Positions 1 to 37,504 of a stretch of 37,504 nt of DNA are shown one piece after another. Each line of letters starts with the position of its first letter. The first letter of the stretch is position 1. The stretch comes from a virus. Taxonomy: Duplodnaviria; Heunggongvirae; Uroviricota; Caudoviricetes. A program made the translations under genes and the position numbers. The notes under the pieces are model-generated. The model was given only the letters and a program-made list of their open reading frames with translations. It was not told where the DNA came from and searched no databases. The stretch is from positions 1 to 37,504 of IMG/VR virus record IMGVR_UViG_2660238580_000001, one strand, 5' to 3'.

Positions 1-1254
1 ATGCTGGAACAAATGGGCATTGCCGCGAAGCAAGCCTCGTATAAATTAGCGCAACTCTCCAGCCGCGAAAAAAATCGCGTGCTGGAAAAAATCGCCGATG
101 AACTGGAAGCACAAAGCGAAATCATCCTCAACGCTAACGCCCAGGATGTTGCTGACGCGCGAGCCAATGGCCTTAGCGAAGCGATGCTTGACCGTCTGGC
201 ACTGACGCCCGCACGGCTGAAAGGCATTGCCGACGATGTACGTCAGGTGTGCAACCTCGCCGATCCGGTGGGGCAGGTAATCGATGGCGGCGTACTGGAC
301 AGCGGCCTGCGTCTTGAGCGTCGTCGCGTACCGCTGGGGGTTATTGGCGTGATTTATGAAGCGCGCCCGAACGTGACGGTTGATGTCGCTTCGCTGTGCC
401 TGAAAACCGGTAATGCGGTGATCCTGCGCGGTGGCAAAGAAACGTGTCGCACTAACGCTGCAACGGTGGCGGTGATTCAGGACGCCCTGAAATCCTGCGG
501 CTTACCGGCGGGTGCCGTGCAGGCGATTGATAATCCTGACCGTGCGCTGGTCAGTGAAATGCTGCGTATGGATAAATACATCGACATGCTGATCCCGCGT
601 GGTGGCGCTGGTTTGCATAAACTGTGCCGTGAACAGTCGACAATCCCGGTGATCACAGGTGGTATAGGCGTATGCCATATTTACGTTGATGAAAGTGTAG
701 AGATCGCTGAAGCATTAAAAGTGATCGTCAACGCGAAAACTCAGCGTCCGAGCACATGTAATACGGTTGAAACGTTGCTGGTGAATAAAAACATCGCCGA
801 TAGCTTCCTGCCCGCATTAAGCAAACAAATGGCGGAAAGCGGCGTGACATTACACGCAGATGCAGCTGCACTGGCGCAGTTGCAGGCAGGCCCTGCGAAG
901 GTGGTTGCTGTTAAAGCCGAAGAGTATGACGATGAGTTTCTGTCATTAGATTTGAACGTCAAAATCGTCAGCGATCTTGACGATGCCATCGCCCATATTC
1001 GTGAACACGGCACACAACACTCCGATGCGATCCTGACCCGCGATATGCGCAACGCCCAGCGTTTTGTTAACGAAGTGGATTCGTCCGCTGTTTACGTTAA
1101 CGCCTCTACGCGTTTTACCGACGGCGGCCAGTTTGGTCTGGGTGCGGAAGTGGCGGTAAGCACACAAAAACTCCACGCGCGTGGCCCAATGGGGCTGGAA
1201 GCACTGACCACTTACAAGTGGATCGGCATTGGTGATTACACCATTCGTGCGTAA
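1..1254 (+). CDS. proA: gamma-glutamyl phosphate reductase (host core gene)
   Basis: Full 417-aa ORF from ATG at 1; translation matches my recollection of E. coli ProA end to end ([11 protein letters not shown] ... GDYTIRA); followed by thrW as in the E. coli chromosome. Confidence 0.96.
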
Positions 1255-1368
1255 ATAAAACCGGGTGATGCAAAAGTAGCCATTTGATTCACAAGGCCAT
1301 TGACGCATCGCCCGGTTAGTTTTAACCTTGTCCACCGTGATTCACGTTCGTGAACATGTCCTTTCAGG

Positions 1369-1444
1369 GCCGATATAGCTCAGTTGGTAGAGCAGCGCAT
1401 TCGTAATGCGAAGGTCGTAGGTTCGACTCCTATTATCGGCACCA
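1369..1444 (+). tRNA. thrW: tRNA-Thr (anticodon CGU)
   Basis: 76-nt sequence GCCGATATAGCTCAGTTGGTAGAGCAGCGCATTCGTAATGCG...GGTTCGACTCCTATTATCGGCACCA with D-loop, anticodon loop containing CGT, T-loop GGTTCGA and 3' CCA; sits just downstream of proA. Confidence 0.93.
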
Positions 1445-1458
1445 TTTAAATCAATAAG

Positions 1459-2622
1459 TTACACATCATTTGTACCTTCCTTATTTTTTGACTGGGACAA
1501 ATTTGGGACCGATGGGTTCAGGATCGAGTCTATTTGCCGTGCGTGTTCGGTAAGGTGATTAGGTGCAAGGTGAGCATATCGACGAACCATTTCGATAGAC
1601 TCCCAGCCTCCCATTTCCTGTAACACTGACAACGGGACTCCGGCTTGAACCAGCCAACTTGCCCAGGTGTGTCTCAAGTCGTGAAATCTGAAATCATCAA
1701 TACCAGCCCGTCTCAGCGCCGCTTTCCAGGCTGTGTTTGCGTCATACCGCATCTTCCTTACTGTTGGCGCTTTCGTTCCGTCTGGTTTGGTACAGCTTTC
1801 CTTGTACACAAATACCCAACGGTGATGATTCCCGATTTGTTTTTTCAATACGCGACATGCAGTATCATTCAGCGCAACGCCAATTGCGCGGTTTGATTTA
1901 CTCTCTTCCGGGTTTATCCATGCCACCCGGCGCTGCATATCTATTTGTTGCCATTCAAGGTTGATGATGTTCGAGCGTCTTAAGCCTGTTGCCAGTGCAA
2001 ATTCAACAACAGACTTTAATGGCTCCGGACATTCATCAATCAGCCTTTGTGCTTCATGGGGCTCCAGCCAGCGGATCCGTTTATTCTTTGGTTGAGGCAC
2101 TTTAATAATTGGTGCCTTATCCAGCATTTTCCATTCACGCTCTGCGGCTCTTAGTAGGGCCTTTATAAATGAAAGATGCGTAGCCTTCGTTGCAACGGAC
2201 GCTGGTTTTGGCGTGTATTCTGGAACAGGTTTCCCTTTTTTTCTGCATGCTTCTGCCCTGAGTTTCCAGTTTTCCTCATGACGCCGGTTCGTCATTTTCT
2301 GCATTGCTGAATAAATTTTTGATTCAGTAATGTCTCTTAGTTGCATTCCTGCGAAATGTTGAAGCCAGAATCCGATCCGGCTTTTGTCATCGTCCAGTGA
2401 TTTTTTATGTGCTTTCTCTTCAAGCCACCTGACACACGCTTCCTCGAACGTTATATCAGGTATTTCACCAAGTTTGCTGACCCGCCATGCTTCAGCCTTT
2501 AGCTTGTCATGGAGTTCTGTCGCCTGCCTTTTGTCCTTTGTTCCAAGAGACTGTTTAAATCTTTTACCGTTCGGCAATGTGAAACTGGCGTACCATATTT
2601 CACCTCTGCGGAAGAGTGACAT
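1459..2622 (-). CDS. int: Tyrosine site-specific integrase, P22-like
   Basis: 387-aa ORF; C-terminal catalytic region with HDLRHTWAS ... RYAHL motifs typical of tyrosine recombinases; resembles my recollection of phage P22 Int, which uses thrW as attB. Confidence 0.94.
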
Positions 2623-2849
2623 TTTCTTTCCTCTGTTATGCCATCACCCGCGCTCACCTGGACAGTATGCAGCGGAGACTGAAGAGCCGCAATGCAGGCT
2701 TGTCGTGTTGTGAGGTAAGGAGATTTATTCTTAGTGGGATCTTTGCGTGTTGCCTGAAGACGCCCTGTGCGTATCCAGTTAATGGCAGTCGGTCTGGATA
2801 TCTTGAGAAAATGACAGGCCTCATCGAGTGTGAGGCTGTATGGCTCCAT
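2499..2849 (-). CDS. xis: Excisionase (P22 Xis-like, 116 aa)
   Basis: Internal Met start [33 protein letters not shown] of the 144-aa ORF gives 116 aa; ATG overlaps the stop of the upstream gene; 3' end overlaps int start in another frame. Confidence 0.75.
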
Positions 2850-3154
2850 TATTTCACCTCTTGCTGTGAGATTTTTGAGAAATGGATACCAGCTCGTTGC
2901 TGCCAGACGATCCAACCGAGAGTCATATTCCATGCCATGTATTCGTTATCGCCGTTTTTTGCTCTCCGACGATCTACTAAGTCACCAAAACGCTTTTCCA
3001 TGAATAATTCATAAGCTTCGCGTTCATCTGGTTCTACTTCCAGAGATAGGAGTGCGATTTCATAAGCACGGCGCTCAATATCGTCTCGCACGTCAAGGCT
3101 GCTGATACGCTCTTTAATTTCTTTAATCAGTTCTTTGTCGGTAAAAGTGGTCAT
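2849..3154 (-). CDS. Hypothetical early-left operon protein (101 aa, acidic)
   Basis: ORF with start/stop overlaps to its neighbours (translational coupling); protein-like composition; no family recognised. Confidence 0.5.
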   Translation of the reverse strand: MTTFTDKELIKEIKERISSLDVRDDIERRAYEIALLSLEVEPDEREAYELFMEKRFGDLVDRRRAKNGDNEYMAWNMTLGWIVWQQRAGIHFSKISQQEVK

Positions 3155-3516
3155 TATGCTCCAGCCTCCGGTGCTTTTGGCATTACTGCCCAGTGAGTGA
3201 TATTGACGTTTTCAAGGTCCCCGACCTGAAATGTCCACTGCCATTCTCCGGTTTCTTTTTGTCCCCAGGTGTACCAGAGAGAACGCCAGCCAATTAGCCA
3301 GCCTTCTCCGTTAGCATCGAATAACAAAACACTTTCATTTGCTGGTGGCAGTTCAGTTGACACTGGTATTACTTTGTTTTCCTGTGCTGCACATTTAGCT
3401 TCAAGCGCATCGAATTTACGCACTAGGTATTCAGCATCCGTTTCATTCACTTTCAGATCTCGCGGTACACATCTCCCACGAAGAAACCCTTCCATTTCGA
3501 AAACATTCATGCGCAT
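3154..3516 (-). CDS. Hypothetical phage protein with Trp-rich C-terminal region (possibly DUF551-like)
   Basis: 120-aa ORF, coupled to neighbours; C-terminal GWRSLWYTWGQKETGEWQW is reminiscent of small prophage proteins; family assignment uncertain. Confidence 0.5.
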   Translation of the reverse strand: MRMNVFEMEGFLRGRCVPRDLKVNETDAEYLVRKFDALEAKCAAQENKVIPVSTELPPANESVLLFDANGEGWLIGWRSLWYTWGQKETGEWQWTFQVGDLENVNITHWAVMPKAPEAGA

Positions 3517-5284: not shown

Positions 5285-5359
5285 TTGCTAACGAATCATC
5301 CTGGACTTCATATGCCCCAGGCGGCTACTTCGTGGGCGTTCTGCCTGTTTGTTGTTTCT

Positions 5360-5400
5360 CTTGGGTACATTATGTATCTCAAGGGTACATTGTCAAGTAT
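5360..5400 (-). promoter_or_regulatory. PL-like promoter with OL-type operator repeats
   Basis: On minus strand: -35 TTGACA (5396..5391), 16-bp spacer, -10 CATAAT (5374..5369); two ATGTACCC repeats overlap it, sharing the TGTAC half-site with the cI/cro operators. Confidence 0.5.
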
Positions 5401-5435
5401 AAAAAAACCTGCCGAAGCAGGTTCATAAACATTGA

Positions 5436-6110
5436 TTAGGCTTTGATTTTGTATCTTCTTGGTTTTCCTGAGAAAATCACAGTTCCAATTATAGAGCAAT
5501 TACCGTTGATCTTAATGTAAGGCTCAGGCCAGTTTGGGTTTAACGCTTTGAGATAACGCTGTGTCCCATCTTCTATCAACCTTTTGAAGGTGGTTTCACC
5601 TGTATCGTGCATCAATGCAATAACGTCGTCACCGTGGCAGGCAGGTACTTCAGGATCGACAAAAATCATGTCTCCCGGGCGGTACTCATCAATCATTGAA
5701 TCACCTATCACCCGCAAGATATAAGTCATTTCCCCACAGGGTACAGGGCAGGGATACGTTTCTGCTGTGCTCAAATCAACCTCAGAATATCCAACTTCTT
5801 TCCATGCTCCGGCCTGTACCCATGATATGACAGGGACTAATGTGATTTGTTTATTAGTGATTGAAACATCAGGTTTTTTTGTGATGTTCGTTGTCTGGTG
5901 TTCTTGATCGAGCCATCCGACAGGCAGGTCGAAACATTTTTCGATGTGTCGTGCCATGCTGTCACCGATATTTTTAGTAGCACCATCTCCCATAAACCTG
6001 CTGGTCTGGGTTGGCTCGCGATCAATCATAGTGGCAAAGGAAGAATTCCCGCCAACACCATCTCTCAGTTTTCTGGCGTTAGACCGCCGGATGTCATGGA
6101 TTGTTTTCAT
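5436..6110 (-). CDS. cI-like prophage repressor (HTH plus LexA/S24-type autocleavage domain)
   Basis: 224 aa; N-terminal HTH region and C-terminal S24 peptidase-like domain (GDSM serine motif, conserved Lys near C-terminus); ATG at 6110 has no SD and lies 15 bp from an operator, suggesting a leaderless mRNA as for lambda cI. Confidence 0.88.
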   Translation of the reverse strand: MKTIHDIRRSNARKLRDGVGGNSSFATMIDREPTQTSRFMGDGATKNIGDSMARHIEKCFDLPVGWLDQEHQTTNITKKPDVSITNKQITLVPVISWVQAGAWKEVGYSEVDLSTAETYPCPVPCGEMTYILRVIGDSMIDEYRPGDMIFVDPEVPACHGDDVIALMHDTGETTFKRLIEDGTQRYLKALNPNWPEPYIKINGNCSIIGTVIFSGKPRRYKIKA

Positions 6111-6124
6111 AACGAAATTAAAAC

Positions 6125-6196
6125 CCTTGTACCGTTAAGGTACAAGTATCTTGAAGGTTCATTTCAATCATGTAATATGTACACTGGAGGTACATA
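6125..6196. promoter_or_regulatory. OR-type operator/promoter region between cI and cro
   Basis: Palindrome CTTGTACC-GTTAA-GGTACAAG (6125-6145) and ATGTAC-N7-GTACAT (6176-6194); rightward promoter TTGAAG (6150-6155)-N16-TAATAT (6172-6177). Confidence 0.6.
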
Positions 6197-6200
6197 TCGT

Positions 6201-6401
6201 ATGAAAGCGTATTGGGACTCTTTAACCAAAGAACAGCAGGGCGAGTTGGCCGGAAAAGTTGGCTCAACACCTGGCTACTTACGGCTGGTTTTCAATGGCT
6301 ATAAAAAAGCCAGTTTTGTGCTGGCTAAAAAACTTGAGCAATGCACGTCAGGTGCAATTACGAAATCTGACTTAAGACCGGATATCTATCCGAAAGATTA
6401 G
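6201..6401 (+). CDS. cro: Cro-like HTH regulator (66 aa)
   Basis: ATG at 6201 preceded by GGAGG (6186-6190); small basic HTH protein MKAYWDSLTKEQQGELAGKVGSTPGYLRLVFNG; divergent from the repressor. Confidence 0.8.
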   Translation: MKAYWDSLTKEQQGELAGKVGSTPGYLRLVFNGYKKASFVLAKKLEQCTSGAITKSDLRPDIYPKD

Positions 6402-6432
6402 CAGAACACTTTCAATTTTTAACCACAGAACG

Positions 6433-7002
6433 ATGAGGCTAATCGTGGGTAAGCATCACTGGAAAATAGAAAAACAGCCTGAGTGGTACGTGAAAGCTGT
6501 CAGAAAAACTATCGCGGCGTTGCCGGGTGGTTACGCTGAAGCGGCTGACTGGCTCGATGTAACAGAAAACGCTTTATTCAACCGCCTTCGTGCAGATGGC
6601 GATCAGATTTTCCCGCTGGGATGGGCAATGGTTTTACAGCGTGCTGGTGGCACTCACTTCATTGCTGATGCTGTGGCGCAGTCTGCAAATGGCGTCTTTG
6701 TGTCTCTTCCTGACGTCGAGGATGTGGACAACGCCGATATTAACCAGCGTCTGCTGGAAGTCATTGAACAGATCGGCAGTTATTCAAAACAGATTCGTTC
6801 AGCAATCGAAGACGGTGTAGTGGAACCGCATGAGAAGACAGCAATTAACGACGAGCTGTATCTCTCAATTTCGAAGCTGCAGGAGCATGCAGCACTTGTC
6901 TACAAAATTTTTTGCATTTCAGAAAGTAATGACGCCCGCGAGTGTGCAGCTCCGGGCGTCGTGGCGTCGATTGCTTCTGGTTGTGGAGAAACTAACGCAT
7001 GA
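6433..7002 (+). CDS. cII-like regulatory protein (YdaT / CP76-type)
   Basis: 189-aa ORF immediately after cro, the usual cII position; resembles YdaT-like prophage proteins from memory; family not confirmed. Confidence 0.5.
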
Positions 7003-7337
7003 ACAGTTTAACAACACACTACCGTCGCTCGCAACTGATTGCGCTTCCTGTACCGGGTGGAAAAGCGAAGGTGGAATATTGCTATGCAGTGAATGTACCA
7101 GGTGACAGGGAAATTGTAACCCACAGCTTTGCAGAGTGGGCTGTGGGTGATTTCAACCGGCAGAAGGAGACAGTCCTTTGCGACAAGTTAACCGCTGGTT
7201 CAAAGATCACTACGGAGTACCCGTCAGAGTCATTCGTTGGGAGCCGGAAACACAACGGGTTATCTACCTCCGCGAAGGCTATGAGCATGAGTGCTTCAGC
7301 CCGCTCGAACAGTTTCGTCGTAAATTCAGGGAAATAG
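6999..7337 (+). CDS. Hypothetical protein; reading frame ambiguous (possible frameshift or two overlapping small genes)
   Basis: ATG at 6999 with GGAGA RBS; protein-like to about 7195, then serine-rich; an alternative frame (TTG 7178 after AAGGAGA, to stop at 7357) reads [40 protein letters not shown] and looks more protein-like. Confidence 0.35.
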
Positions 7338-7346
7338 AGGTCGGTC

Positions 7347-8288
7347 ATGAGCACTAAATTAACCGGCTATGTATGGGATGGTTGCGCTGCGTCAGGCATG
7401 AAGTTATCCAGCGTGGCAATTATGGCCCGCCTGGCTGATTTCAGTAATGACGAAGGTGTGTGCTGGCCATCAATTGAAACCATTGCCCGCCAGATTGGCG
7501 CGGGGATGAGTACCGTCAGAACGGCTATCGCACGGCTGGAAGCAGAAGGCTGGTTAACGCGTAAGGCGCGTCGCCAGGGTAACCGCAATGCGTCGAATGT
7601 TTATCAGCTTAACGTTGCGAAGCTTCAGGCAGCGGCATTTTCTCAACTGTCAGATTCTGACCCGTCAAAATCTGACGCATCAAAATCTGACCCGTCAAAA
7701 TTTGATGCGTCGAAATCTGGCAAAAAAGCGGGTTTTCACCCGTCAGAATCTGGCGGGGATCCGTCAGTAAAATCAAAACATGATCCGTCAGATAAAAAAA
7801 CTTCTCGTCCGGACGCTTCGCAACCGGACATGAAGAAGGATGAACAGGATTTTTTAACTCGTCATCCTGATGCGGTTGTATTCAGCTCTAAAAAGCGCCA
7901 GTGGGGAACGCAGGATGATTTGACCTGCGCACAGTGGCTCTGGAAAAAAATCATCGCCCTGTACGAGCAGGCCGCCGAATGTGACGGCGAGGTGGTTCGT
8001 CCCAAAGAACCTAACTGGACAGCCTGGGCAAACGAAATTCGCCTGATGTGTGTGCAGGATGGTCGTACTCACAAACAAATCTGCGAGATGTACAGCCGCG
8101 TCAGCCGCGATCCGTTCTGGTGCCGTAACGTGCTCAGCCCGTCGAAGTTGCGGGAAAAATGGGATGAGCTTTCCCTGCGCTTATCGCCGTCCGTCAGCAC
8201 GCACACAGAAAAACGTGAAGACCCGTACTTCAAAGCCAGTTACGACAACGTGGACTACAGCCAGATCCCGGCAGGATTCAGGGGGTGA
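7347..8288 (+). CDS. Replication initiation protein (N-terminal HTH domain, iteron-encoded linker, C-terminal domain)
   Basis: 313 aa; N-terminal HTH-like region; central low-complexity linker SDSDPSKSDASKSDPSKFDASKSG encoded by DNA iterons, as in lambda O-type initiators. Confidence 0.78.
   Translation: MSTKLTGYVWDGCAASGMKLSSVAIMARLADFSNDEGVCWPSIETIARQIGAGMSTVRTAIARLEAEGWLTRKARRQGNRNASNVYQLNVAKLQAAAFSQLSDSDPSKSDASKSDPSKFDASKSGKKAGFHPSESGGDPSVKSKHDPSDKKTSRPDASQPDMKKDEQDFLTRHPDAVVFSSKKRQWGTQDDLTCAQWLWKKIIALYEQAAECDGEVVRPKEPNWTAWANEIRLMCVQDGRTHKQICEMYSRVSRDPFWCRNVLSPSKLREKWDELSLRLSPSVSTHTEKREDPYFKASYDNVDYSQIPAGFRG
7655..7800. repeat. Iteron array (candidate replication origin) inside the initiator gene
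   Basis: At least five copies of CCGTCA(A/G)AATCTG(A/G)-like repeats, followed by an A-rich stretch (GATAAAAAAA). Confidence 0.6.
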
Positions 8289-8290
8289 TC

Positions 8291-34697: not shown

Positions 34698-35354
34698 ATG
34701 CATCGTATAGACACGAAAACCGCGCAGAAGGATAAGTTCGGCGCGGGTAAGAACGGTTTTACCCGTGGTAACCCCCAGACCGGCACGCCTGCCACCGATC
34801 TGGATGATGACTACTTTGACATGTTGCAGGAAGAGCTTTGTGGCGTGGTGGAGGCATCCGGTGCCAGCCTGGAGAAGGGGCGGCATGACCAGCTGCTTAC
34901 CGCGCTTCGTGCGCTGCTGTTAAGCCGCAAGAATCCGTTTGGCGATATCAAATCGGATGGCACGGTGAAAACGGCTCTCGAAAACCTTGGTTTGGGAGAA
35001 GGTTCGGCATTACCCGTTGGCGTGCCTGTTCCGTGGCCTTCCGCTATTGGTCGCTTCGGGTTTTTTGTTTGCGGTGGTGGCTCTTTTTCTTTTGCATCAT
35101 GTTTTGTTCTTGAGTGGGGCTCTCTGGGCGCTCCATTGCTTGCTTTGGGTGTTGTGTTTCTTTTTGGGTTTGCTTTTGGGCGTGGATTTGTTCGTGTTTT
35201 TGTTTTATTAGCGTATCCAGCGGATGGCGTGGTTTTTGGTTATCTTGGCTTTGCTGGTTTTGTTGGGTCCGTTGTTAATTTTCTGTCTGGAGTCGGTCCT
35301 GTTGTCTTTGGCGCTTCATTTTTAGCGTTAGGCTGTTCATTTGGTTTTGTTTAG
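34698..35354 (+). CDS. Tail fibre protein: conserved N-terminal region intact; C-terminal part inside the invertible segment is aberrant (likely non-functional in this orientation)
   Basis: Typical tail-fibre N-terminus (MHRIDTKTAQKDKFGAGKNGF ... PVGVPVPWPSA); after the crossover site at about 35000 the reading frame continues as Gly/Phe/Val/Leu-rich low-complexity sequence. Confidence 0.55.
   Translation: MHRIDTKTAQKDKFGAGKNGFTRGNPQTGTPATDLDDDYFDMLQEELCGVVEASGASLEKGRHDQLLTALRALLLSRKNPFGDIKSDGTVKTALENLGLGEGSALPVGVPVPWPSAIGRFGFFVCGGGSFSFASCFVLEWGSLGAPLLALGVVFLFGFAFGRGFVRVFVLLAYPADGVVFGYLGFAGFVGSVVNFLSGVGPVVFGASFLALGCSFGFV
34975..35000. repeat. gix/hix-like recombination site (left), within the tail fibre gene
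   Basis: CTCTCGAAAACC-TT-GGTTTGGGAGAA, a 26-bp imperfect palindrome resembling Hin/Gin crossover sites; its reverse complement matches the first 14 nt of the right site. Confidence 0.6.
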
Positions 35355-36872
35355 TGGTCTATGAGTTACATAGTTTTTACTTATACCACTGGTGGAAGAA
35401 ATGGTGCTGAATCAGTGAGTTCACCTGATGCCTCCTCTTTGCTTGATGATGCTGTTGAAGTTGATGTGGCATTTTCTTTTGTGTTTTGGGGTTTATCGTG
35501 GATTGGGCCGTTTTGTATCGCTGGTTTATCTGGTTTTCGTGCGTGGTTCTTACTGTTTATAACTATGATGGTGAAACACGGGAATATATTTTCACATCAA
35601 CTGAATATCTTGCTGTGGGTGTCGGCATTCCGGCATGCTCCTGTTTAGATGCTTGTTACTGCTGTTATTGTTGTTATGCAATCTGCCGTTCTGCAGATTT
35701 TAACTTTTTGGTTTGTTTGCCTGGCCGCCGTGGTGCTGGTGTATATTTCCGTTGCGCCGGATATTGAATGGCCTTCGCCTCTGGGGGTTCTTGCCCTGTG
35801 ACTTCCGGCGCTGTGGTGGTGTTTGTTGCCTTCGCTGCGTGGGTTTGTTCGAGCTGGGTGTTCGGTCGTGTGGTTTCTGCTTGCGTCGGCTTCGGCGCGG
35901 CCTGCGCTTTGCGTTGGTTCCTGCTTGTTGCTGCCATTGCTTTCTTCATTCTTGTTTGACTGTGTTTTTCTGCCGGGTGTACTGTGGCGCAGTGCTGTGC
36001 CTCCGTATTTGTCGCTGTTTTGTCTTCCTTTGATTTGTTGACTGGCGTTAACGGGGCGATAGTGGTTGTATTTTCAGGGTATTCACCCGGGGCTGTGATT
36101 TCTTTTGATTCTCCTGTTTCAGTGCTATATACCGTTTCACCACGGTGGTCTGGCACATATACCCATGATTTTATTTCTGCAGTTCGTCAGCTTTCATACG
36201 CCGCTTTGTCTGTTTCCGGGGCCATTGTTTACTGTTCATATAATCGTTGGCCTGATTAATCAATTGCTGCTTCTCCAATTCGGCTGTATTCCTTTGTTTC
36301 TCCTTTGTTGTTGTTGGCATTTCTGTTTCTTGCGTGGGTGGCTTTTCTTTCGTTATTTGGTTTTTTGTTTTCGGTTGTGCTGCGGTCACGTTATTCTCCA
36401 CTTGCTGGTTCCGTGGTCTGGTTTCTTTTGTTCATGAGTCAGCTTGAGTGTAATCCTCTTTCATCTCCAGCGGATAGAAAGAGTTTGTAGTCGCGGAATC
36501 TCTTTCATTGTTTTTTCAGTCCTTCTCGCTAACTTTTTTTGCTGATGCTAAAATTGTTTCGTCGGGTCTAGGCTTTTTTGTTCTGTATGTGATTTTAGTC
36601 GGTTCGGGCCTTTTTGTAGGTATTCCATGATTATGAGAAATTACTGCATGTTGTTTGTTGTTTTGTGAGGTCCGACCGCTCTGCCCTCTGTTTGGGTCTT
36701 CCCTGGGGCGATTGGTTTCTCCATGTTGTTCAGTGCCTTTATTTGTCGGATAAGCCTTTGCCAGTTCCGGGTATTCTTGTGCTTTTTGATCTGCAGTGTT
36801 TGATTTCGGCCGGGTTGTTGTCGGCGTGTCAGGTATCTGATTCGCCCCTGTCCCTACATTCCTTTTAGCCGC
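35001..36872. other. Invertible (G-segment-like) DNA segment with extreme strand-asymmetric base composition
   Basis: Bounded by inverted gix-like sites next to a serine invertase. Hand counts in 60-nt samples (A/C/G/T): 2/11/20/27, 5/6/17/32, 5/6/19/30, 1/18/20/21, 2/9/16/33. Overlapping stop-free ORFs occur on both strands. Confidence 0.6.
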
Positions 36873-36898
36873 TTCTCCCAAACCAACCTTTTAGAAAA
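36873..36898. repeat. gix/hix-like recombination site (right), upstream of the invertase gene
   Basis: TTCTCCCAAACC-AA-CCTTTTAGAAAA; first 14 nt identical to the reverse complement of the left site. Confidence 0.6.
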
Positions 36899-36952: not shown

Positions 36953-37504
36953 ATGCTCATCGGCTATGTACGCGTGTCAACAAATGACCAGAACACTGCA
37001 TTGCAACGAAACGCGCTGGAGTGCGCAGGATGTGAACTGATATTCGAGGATAAGATCAGCGGCAGAACGTCTGACAGGCCGGGCTTGAAGAAAGTACTCA
37101 GGACTCTGTCTGAAGGCGATACGCTGGTGGTCTGGAAACTGGATCGACTCGGTCGCAGCATGCGGCATCTTGTCGTTTTGGTGGAGGAGCTTCGGGAAAA
37201 GGGTATTAACTTTCGCAGCCTGACCGACAGCATAGATACGTCTTCACCAATGGGACGCTTTTTCTTCCATGTCATGGGCGCACTTGCAGAAATGGAAAGG
37301 GAGCTGATAGTCGAACGTACCAGGGCGGGATTGGCTGCGGCTCGTGAAGAAGGGCGAATAGGTGGGCGTCGATCAAAGCTAACTGATGAACAGTGGGCGC
37401 AGGCAGGCAGGTTGATTGCAGCAGGTGAATCACGACAGCGTGTGGCATTAATTTACGATGTTGGGATATCGACGCTATATAAAAAATTTCCGGCAACCAG
37501 GTAA
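36953..37504 (+). CDS. Serine DNA invertase (Pin/Gin/Hin/Cin family)
   Basis: 183 aa; close match to E. coli Pin as I recall it (MLIGYVRVSTNDQNT ... VVWKLDRLGRSMRHLV ... GRIGGRR ... YDVGISTLYK), including the catalytic serine motif and C-terminal HTH. Confidence 0.93.
   Translation: MLIGYVRVSTNDQNTALQRNALECAGCELIFEDKISGRTSDRPGLKKVLRTLSEGDTLVVWKLDRLGRSMRHLVVLVEELREKGINFRSLTDSIDTSSPMGRFFFHVMGALAEMERELIVERTRAGLAAAREEGRIGGRRSKLTDEQWAQAGRLIAAGESRQRVALIYDVGISTLYKKFPATR

Follow-up and report, generated by a model that had tools for sequence, protein, structure and literature searches.

The invertible locus and its composition

Din-family invertible segments, such as P/pinE of e14, G/gin of Mu and C/cin of P1, are built from the same parts as the locus underlying the stretch analyzed here. 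The likeness to the Pin, Gin, Cin and Hin systems comprises a serine invertase beside a ~1.9-kb segment, inverted 26-bp sites with matching cores, and two fibre C-termini on opposite strands, each with its assembly chaperone. Clonal E. coli cultures are known to contain both orientations of Pin-type prophage segments (PMC4272514). Biologically, we find no difference from these systems; what sets this locus apart is that its segment is unreadable, the two orientations having been merged.

The window is the whole stretch of 37,504 nucleotides of IMG/VR record IMGVR_UViG_2660238580_000001. The locus in question is shown to belong to an SfV/SfIV/e14-like prophage at thrW, in which it forms an ordinary invertible tail-fibre segment of the Pin type. 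The earlier note had recognized the invertible tail-fibre segment, bounded by two gix-like sites and with a Pin/Gin-type invertase beside it. Inverted-repeat search and direct reading of the sequence both recover the sites, whose inverted-repeat arms (34978-35001 and 36872-36895) span 24 nt and are 88% complementary. As in the Din family, imperfect 12-bp half-sites surround a 2-bp core in an inverted pair, and the core is the same in both, AA of the right site being TT on the opposite strand. The invertase is equally real, with matches to Resolvase and HTH_7, and its protein cluster has members annotated as DNA invertase Pin-like or as recombinase family protein. An intact counterpart of the segment, hereafter x, is present in a prophage of E. 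coli APEC20/16 (99.5-100% identical), and the coordinates of the true genes are projected from it (window position = L001 position + 33399). The sequence of the A-poor stretch itself is referred to as the blend.

34698-35044, plus strand: constant 5' part of the tail-fibre gene and the first 43 nt of the segment, unblended, 100% identical to APEC20/16
34698-35498, plus strand: true tail-fibre gene in the x orientation, 266 aa, Collar domain (projected)
34975-35000: left 26-bp gix/pix-like crossover site, CTCTCGAAAACC-TT-GGTTTGGGAGAA, core TT at 34987-34988 (inverted-repeat arm and sequence reading)
35498-36100, plus strand: true tail-fibre assembly gene, 200 aa, Caudo_TAP (projected)
36072-36512, minus strand: true alternative tail-fibre assembly gene, 146 aa, Caudo_TAP (projected)
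36534-36827, minus strand: true alternative fibre C-terminus, 97 aa, Gp53-like_C (projected)
36873-36898: right 26-bp crossover site, TTCTCCCAAACC-AA-CCTTTTAGAAAA, core AA at 36885-36886 (inverted-repeat arm and sequence reading)
36953-37504, plus strand: Pin/Gin-family serine DNA invertase, 183 aa, Resolvase PF00239 at 8e-51 and HTH_7 PF02796 at 9e-13

The two fibre C-termini with their cognate assembly genes on opposite strands, and the constant 5' part outside the segment, are seen in the intact counterpart and are unreadable in the window. Inversion joins the 97-aa Gp53-like_C end to the constant part, giving a 213-aa form. Among the 120 proteins listed, natural fusions of 213 aa (Gp53-like_C) and 266 aa (Collar) both occur in many public genomes.

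The composition of the segment deviates strongly from that of its surroundings, and this anomaly is confirmed as a real feature of the deposited record. Across 35001-36872, the base fractions are A.112, C.196, G.266 and T.427 (11.2% A, 42.7% T), compared with A.246 and T.242 in the rest of the window, where no 300-nt window falls below.147 A. Base counts thus agree with the plus-strand rank order T>G>C>A that had been noted for this interval. The AT skew lies between -0.4 and -0.84 within the segment and is ~0 on either flank, in line with the normal sequence previously described outside both sites. Sliding-window composition, one of the checks proposed earlier, places a break near the crossover sites. 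This break is sharp, as claimed, but not exactly at the sites: it lies 57 nt inside each crossover centre, at 35045 and 36828. The 2-8% A reported from hand counts applies to the blend zones, the worst part of the segment (6.8% A, 46.3% T), and not to seven patches of ordinary composition (35002-35044, 35372-35440, 35550-35653, 35673-35705, 36220-36286, 36433-36499 and 36829-36871).

The skew was correctly seen as linked to the strand and not to codons, the composition of the blend being equal in both halves. The stacked open reading frames are present, and stop codons are depleted to a moderate extent only (.029 on the plus and.033 on the minus strand vs.047 and.043 in the intact segment). 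The two motifs quoted as surviving fibre ends can also be found. The translation of 34698-35044 reaches ...PVGVPVPWPSA before the blend begins at 35045; EYPELAKAYPTNK, taken for an alternative fibre end, is instead the flipped C-terminus of the plus-strand fibre. The outcomes that the earlier note had named as refuting its observation (a smooth composition across the sites, reads of normal composition, or related prophages of the same composition) are unable to tell its explanations apart.

A mirror model for the A-poor stretch

Comparison with the intact counterpart offers a greater level of detail about the anomaly. APEC20/16 matches the left flank at 99.5% identity and the right flank at 100%, with breaks in the alignment at 35044 and 36829. 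In between, the base changes run up the alphabet (A>C 105, A>G 103, A>T 112, C>G 79, C>T 96, G>T 109), with just 13 changes from T. We define y by reverse-complementing x around the crossover dinucleotides of both sites, so that each position w is mirrored at w' = 71873-w. All 688 positions that differ from x carry y, that is, the complement of the mirrored base, while alternative mirror centres explain at most 207 of the 688. Every position is equal to x or y (1915/1915, 0 unexplained), in a single register and with no indels. The mirror axis is set by the core dinucleotides of both 26-bp sites: 34987 + 36886 gives 71873, the mirror sum that had been found independently.

The choice between x and y follows a simple rule. 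The alphabetical maximum of the two is carried at 932 of 937 informative blend-zone positions, and all six conflict types obey T>G>C>A. Minimum letters occur within the blend zones at five isolated positions (35113, 35120, 35373, 35458 and 36415); outside them, they are confined to discrete x-only or y-only zones. A choice in the order T>G>C>A leads to ~7% A, 18% C, 28% G and 46% T, alike in both halves. The predicted A/C/G/T composition of the blend zones,.066/.185/.284/.465, agrees within.002 with the observed.068/.184/.285/.463. Bitwise OR of 2-bit base codes is ruled out as the rule, since C/G conflicts give G and never T. A pure maximum of x and y across the whole segment covers 92.5% of positions, and the x-only and y-only zones are required for the rest.

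35045-36828: blended region, each base being x or y, and the maximum of both in the blend zones
35310-35337: short y-only zone
35372-35440: x-only patch, mirror of 36433-36499; 17 positions keep x despite a later-letter y, with no y calls
35550-35653: x-only patch, of which 35587-35653 mirrors 36220-36286
35673-35705: x-only patch with no x-only mirror partner
36043-36168: y-only zone, showing 35705-35830 in reverse complement, from within the tail-fibre assembly gene of the plus strand
36220-36286: x-only patch, mirrors 35587-35653
36433-36499: x-only patch, mirrors 35372-35440
36612-36650: y-only zone, flipped copy of 35223-35261, with HAVISHNHGIPTK on the minus strand
36738-36778: y-only zone, flipped copy of 35095-35135, with the second quoted motif on the minus strand
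36829-36871: x-only end zone, mirror of 35002-35044; 100% identity to APEC20/16 from 36829 onward

Gapped global alignment to the intact segment places indels near 36045-36290 and 36740-36790. These are spurious, as ungapped comparison and the mirror model show the y-only zones in register. Direct comparison, together with the symmetry of the patches, also rules out internal inverted repeats or extra genomic copies as their source, because extra physical copies would give x-only sequence at one site and y-only sequence at its mirror, not x-only at both. The y-only zones are without y-only mirror partners.

Origin of the blend and competing explanations

We consider it almost certain, judging from the sequence, that the A-poor stretch of 1.78 kb was produced computationally and is a chimera within the assembly deposited as NCBI GCA_001030405.1 (scaffold KQ087687.1). 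An assembly artefact from mixed segment orientation was one of three unranked explanations in the earlier note, and with all 688 changed bases equal to y, it proved to be the right one. The blend itself holds both orientations, the feature typical of the Din family; that both were probably also present in the sequenced culture is what we infer, the invertase presumably having been active there.

Heterogeneous sites can be turned by assembler consensus or bubble flattening into ambiguity codes or settled by a fixed tie-break, and such merging usually hits single SNP columns or near-identical bubbles. The stretch resembles these cases in its deterministic, alphabet-ordered choice and in the column-wise merging of equally supported alternatives of equal length. 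It differs in that unrelated-looking paths of 1.8 kb, a sequence and its own reverse complement, are merged over their full length. Between the inverted sites, the assembler may have encountered two paths of equal length and merged them one column at a time, using a deterministic tie-break; ambiguity codes written at this step and later resolved to the last base would be an equivalent route. The ALLPATHS 2 paper describes ambiguities as being replaced by gaps and not merged column-wise, which speaks neither for nor against that assembler family. A literature search for such merging of two orientations found no paper describing the case.

The x-only and y-only zones, together with their mirror symmetry, may be explained by a later correction step based on reads. 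Such a step would have brought back the true sequence only beside the flanks and in short stretches that the blend happened to share largely with one orientation. In the x-only zones, the pure blend agrees with x at 77%, and in the y-only zones it agrees with y at 79%; the blend zones give 57% for x and 66% for y. The symmetry would follow from complementing, which turns the alphabetical order around: wherever x>y at w, x>y holds at the mirror position too. Such a repair model is only partly satisfying: it leaves y-only zones without y-only partners and presumes read placement at 77% identity.

A related artefact, in which two near-identical prophage copies in opposite switch states were collapsed with no inversion mix within the culture, appears unlikely to us. 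In its favour, related fibre segments are often found several times per E. coli genome (median 2, up to 13 matching places). However, y is the exact reverse complement of x over 1.87 kb, and the second copy would have to be identical in the segment as well as in the flanks, which are unblended and 100% clean on both sides. A second strain, moreover, shows this artefact at the corresponding locus, and mixed orientation within a culture is the documented norm (PMC4272514). We attach very little probability to the idea that the blend was made after deposit, by a data provider turning public IUPAC codes into plain bases. The maximum rule is indeed what results if every such code is read as its final base (R>G, Y>T, K>T, M>C, S>G, W>T). 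Yet KLX37029.1 (GenBank, from the submitter), WP_048228909.1 and WP_248791098.1 (RefSeq) are exact translations of the plain-base blend with no X residues, which indicates that the deposit itself holds the blended bases, and the copy in an NCBI-derived collection is identical to the window.

The other two explanations offered earlier are refuted by the mirror relation. Real strand-specific hypermutation of the cassette, whether by adenine mutagenesis as in diversity-generating retroelements, by a deaminase or by one-strand error-prone repair, would account for a strong plus-strand loss of A limited to the cassette and for the equal shares of C, G and T that replace A. The phage also encodes a Dam adenine methyltransferase (8746-9432), but such an enzyme leaves the base sequence unchanged. 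The resemblance to diversity-generating retroelements, which extends to the tail-fibre target and the roughly equal replacement of adenines by the other three bases, is superficial. C and G are replaced too, as the counts above show, directionally and solely by alphabetically later letters, and the order A<C<G<T corresponds to no chemistry. The "template" would be the mirrored complement of the segment itself, matching at every changed position, and four genes on both strands are affected and destroyed, with no related genome carrying any of the sequence. Hypermutation is thus extremely improbable. A degenerate segment, with fibre genes pseudogenised under mutation pressure, would fit the low-complexity products and the lack of Pfam matches for most of its open reading frames, but we regard it as next to impossible. 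Decay would not alternate 100%-identity patches with ~60%-identity zones in the absence of any indel, nor would it yield a sequence wholly determined by its own mirror image.

Recurrence, database traces and significance

The computational chimera recurs. GCA_002152145.1, from a second strain, carries the same blend at the same locus in a purer form, bringing the independent assemblies affected here to two. With q the deposited sequence and S the mirror sum, the inequality q[w] >= comp(q[S-w]) holds in this assembly at 1800 of 1800 positions, compared with a background of.893 +/-.009; for sequence of normal composition, the background would be ~63%. The outer parts of the segment in this assembly can be fitted with APEC20/16 in two registers, 18 bp apart. 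E. coli 30EVA1 (H60), tried as the intact counterpart of this assembly, has the same span and was rejected as the wrong allele, with 1031 positions unexplained. Recurrence was covered by a fibre-protein survey with 120 proteins listed. Literature searches returned nothing on GCA_001030405, KQ087687 or KLX37029, and one unrelated paper for NGSD01 or OUF88171.

Elsewhere, the blended sequence is absent from complete E. coli genomes (0/5426), none of the related prophages compared carries the A-poor sequence, and an exact 60-mer from the blend has no match in IMG/VR. All four segment genes are destroyed by the blend. The intact counterpart encodes proteins with Collar, Caudo_TAP, Caudo_TAP and Gp53-like_C matches, which the blended open reading frames lose; most of these have no Pfam match and encode low-complexity products. 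One of them, at 35674-36156 on the minus strand, is a spurious product of the y-only zone 36043-36168 with a weak Caudo_TAP match (7e-09), and it is named tail fiber assembly protein in RefSeq (WP_248791098.1). The blended products form singleton clusters among ~15 billion proteins, despite their GenBank and RefSeq accessions. At least three spurious proteins (KLX37029.1/WP_048228909.1, WP_248791098.1 and OUF88171.1) thereby stand in GenBank or RefSeq under plausible names.

It is possible, and we suggest it tentatively, that the blend reflects a systematic fault, not reported to date, in the way one assembly or flattening pipeline handles invertible DNA. If so, similar chimeras might sit in many public drafts, at the fibre switches of phages, at shufflons and at hsdS and fim-type switches, and each would seed GenBank and RefSeq with non-existent proteins. 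The mirror inequality would then betray, reference-free, which segments had been actively inverting in the culture that was sequenced.

As far as can be read from its bases, the blended sequence exists in no cell, and the biology of the locus is that of a textbook Pin-type tail-fibre switch. The biological significance of the stretch is therefore low, and its value is that of a data-quality warning: a consensus rule alone can mimic a compositional anomaly of the kind expected from hypermutation. Its exact signature, a sequence that is at no position smaller than its mirrored complement about the inverted sites, could help to purge databases, with a list of segments that invert in sequenced cultures as a by-product.

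The invertible segment and its composition

The underlying locus is an invertible fibre switch of a previously known kind. Its crossover sites, read directly from the sequence, and neighbouring genes are listed below with the early-region features discussed further on.

34975-35000, left 26-bp gix/hix-type crossover site, CTCTCGAAAACC-TT-GGTTTGGGAGAA
36873-36898, right 26-bp gix/hix-type crossover site, TTCTCCCAAACC-AA-CCTTTTAGAAAA
34978-35001 and 36872-36895, inverted arms flanking the segment
36953-37504, serine invertase, 183 aa (Resolvase 8e-51, HTH_7 9e-13)
5357-6417, non-aligning immunity region, Peptidase_S24 repressor at 5436-6110 (-)
6433-7002, CII-like gene, after the immunity region
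8746-9432 (+), Dam, phage DNA N6-adenine methyltransferase of the early region (Pfam Dam 5e-45)
8782-9423, second non-aligning module, overlapping the 5' part of the Dam gene

The prophage is SfV/SfIV/e14-like with a Mu-type tail and is integrated at tRNA-Thr(CGU) (1369-1444), adjoining proA; position 1 falls within proA (window 1-1444). The thrW attachment site, here tRNA-Thr(CGU), is typical of SfV-like phages. The source of the window is scaffold KQ087687.1 (NCBI assembly GCA_001030405.1), whose retrieved copy has the identical sequence.

The shortage of adenine reported in the earlier note is real at the level of the record. Base fractions in 35001-36872 are A.112, C.196, G.266 and T.427, compared with A.246 and T.242 in the remaining 35 kb, where no 300-nt window falls below A.147. 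Windowed AT skew runs from -0.4 to -0.84 within the segment and is ~0 on either flank. Stops are likewise depleted, though moderately, with stop triplets at.029 and.033 on the two strands vs.047 and.043 in the intact segment. Stop triplets depend on A in one strand or its complement, so both strands lose some, hence the stacked ORFs. The Dam methyltransferase, though it could invite an adenine-modification reading, is irrelevant to the base sequence.

Comparison with an intact segment and its mirror image

The segment was found in none of the 5426 complete E. coli genomes searched. In E. coli APEC20/16 (NZ_CP127297.1) this site is occupied by the same prophage, whose segment is identical in length. 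The 25.6-kb left flank is 99.5% identical and the 676-bp right flank 100%, and the alignment is broken at 35044 and 36829. Elsewhere, 5357-6417 and 8782-9423, both mosaic modules, are the sole parts of the prophage that do not align. In APEC20/16 the tRNA is immediately adjoined by the integrase gene. An IS3-family element closely follows the invertase gene on its downstream side, and GP46, a baseplate gene, has a frameshift annotation (2116-3278 and 7985-8409 of the APEC20/16 locus, L003), and thus this prophage may be a defective copy despite its intact switch segment.

Changes from APEC20/16 to the window are one-directional within the segment: A>C 105, A>G 103, A>T 112, C>G 79, C>T 96 and G>T 109, with only 13 from T. 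In ungapped comparison, "downward" changes are zero in nearly every 50-nt bin. No chemistry accounts for substitution that obeys the order A<C<G<T; such a pattern results from taking the position-wise maximum of two strings. For the second string we took the reverse complement (y) of the APEC20/16 segment (x), pairing each position w with w' = 71873 - w. All 688 window positions that differ from x equal y, whereas alternative mirror centres match at most 207 of the 688. The axis is exactly that of both core dinucleotides (34987 + 36886 = 71873), and none of the 1915 positions across 34980-36894 is left unexplained.

Three kinds of zone are present: blend zones, which keep the larger letter of x and y; seven pairwise mirrored zones of x only; and a few of y only. 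Of 937 informative positions in the blend zones, 932 have the maximum letter; each of the six types of conflict obeys T>G>C>A. A bitwise OR rule was rejected, since C/G conflicts resolve to G. Predicted composition (A/C/G/T) is.066/.185/.284/.465, and that observed is.068/.184/.285/.463. The five isolated smaller-letter positions (35113, 35120, 35373, 35458 and 36415) may be single-base repair remnants or strain SNPs; 35458 and 36415 mirror each other, and 35113 and 35120 mirror into the y-only zone 36738-36778.

A reference-free test uses the property that a sequence max-blended with its own reverse complement is never smaller, at any position, than the complement of its mirrored base. In the blend zones this inequality holds at 1102 of 1106 positions at centre 71873, compared with.868 +/-.016 at other centres and.63 in ordinary sequence. 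The A-poor segment is no real feature of the genome: of the explanations offered in the earlier note, the mixed-orientation assembly artefact is upheld by the mirrored-complement origin of every changed base. Strand-specific hypermutation, DGR-like mutagenesis and gene decay into a degenerate segment are excluded as causes by that same mirror-image origin, by the alphabetical direction of the changes and by the complete absence of indels.

Proteins of the blend and its recurrence

The intact segment encodes four proteins:

fibre, 266 aa, Collar domain
chaperone, Caudo_TAP
second chaperone (-), Caudo_TAP
fibre end (-), Gp53-like_C

The blended ORFs have lost these domain matches, except that ORF 35674-36156(-), spanning y-only zone 36043-36168, gives a weak Caudo_TAP match. 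The minus-strand motif "EYPELAKAYPTNK" at the right end, seen in the earlier note, does not represent the alternative fibre end; it is the plus-strand Collar-type fibre C-terminus flipped, in y-only zone 36738-36778; "HAVISHNHGIPTK" at 36612-36650 is likewise this C-terminus flipped in a y-only zone.

Products of the blended ORFs form singleton clusters among ~15 billion proteins. Those of 34698-35354(+) (KLX37029.1/WP_048228909.1, "phage protein") and 35674-36156(-) (WP_248791098.1, "tail fiber assembly protein") are deposited with residues exactly as in the blend, in the submitter's GenBank and in RefSeq. Proteins that do not exist thus sit in both databases under plausible names, and the exact match indicates that the deposit itself holds the blend in plain bases. 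Downstream conversion of ambiguity codes is rejected on the same ground.

Searching with the blended fibre protein retrieved a second singleton, OUF88171.1 (270 aa, 86% identical over its full length, no Pfam match), the spurious product of a blend in the same prophage region of another E. coli assembly (GCA_002152145.1, NGSD01000003.1, record 385865-398677). Its A-poor segment (6328-8133 of that locus, L004) has A.069, C.175, G.301 and T.455, and satisfies the mirror inequality at 1800 of 1800 positions vs a background of.893 +/-.009. This blend is purer, without interior patches. The segment, shorter by 18 bp, departs from APEC20/16 at about 6500-7200; where APEC20/16 fits the allele, the maximum is found at all informative positions more than ~35 nt from each crossover. 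Hence, the artefact is not a one-off.

Origin and meaning of the blend

At only ~15 bp, the perfect core of the crossover sites falls below the usual k-mer size in assembly. A genome in a single orientation would therefore be unambiguous for an assembler, and both junction types were most probably present among the sequenced reads. Fibre fusion forms of 266 aa and 213 aa are both common in public genomes, and both orientations of Pin-type prophage segments coexist in clonal E. coli cultures (PMC4272514). Two identical prophage copies in opposite switch states, collapsed into one, are an unlikely source of both orientations, as the flanks are clean and the blend recurs in a second strain.

With both orientations among the reads, the assembler would have faced two paths of equal length between the crossover sites, which would have been merged per column by a set tie-break or, alternatively, via ambiguity codes whose last base was chosen afterwards. 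Zones of x only or of y only look like the outcome of partial read-based repair at a later stage. A pure blend has 77% likeness to x in the x-only zones and 79% to y in the y-only zones, compared with 57% and 66% elsewhere. Mirror pairing of the x-only patches follows from complementing, which reverses the alphabet: where x exceeds y it does so at the mirror position too. The y-only zones have no y-only mirror partners. The account as a whole is the most likely origin of the blend, and the repair step is its weakest part. The finding is of value only in that it warns about data quality and might serve to detect errors of this kind.
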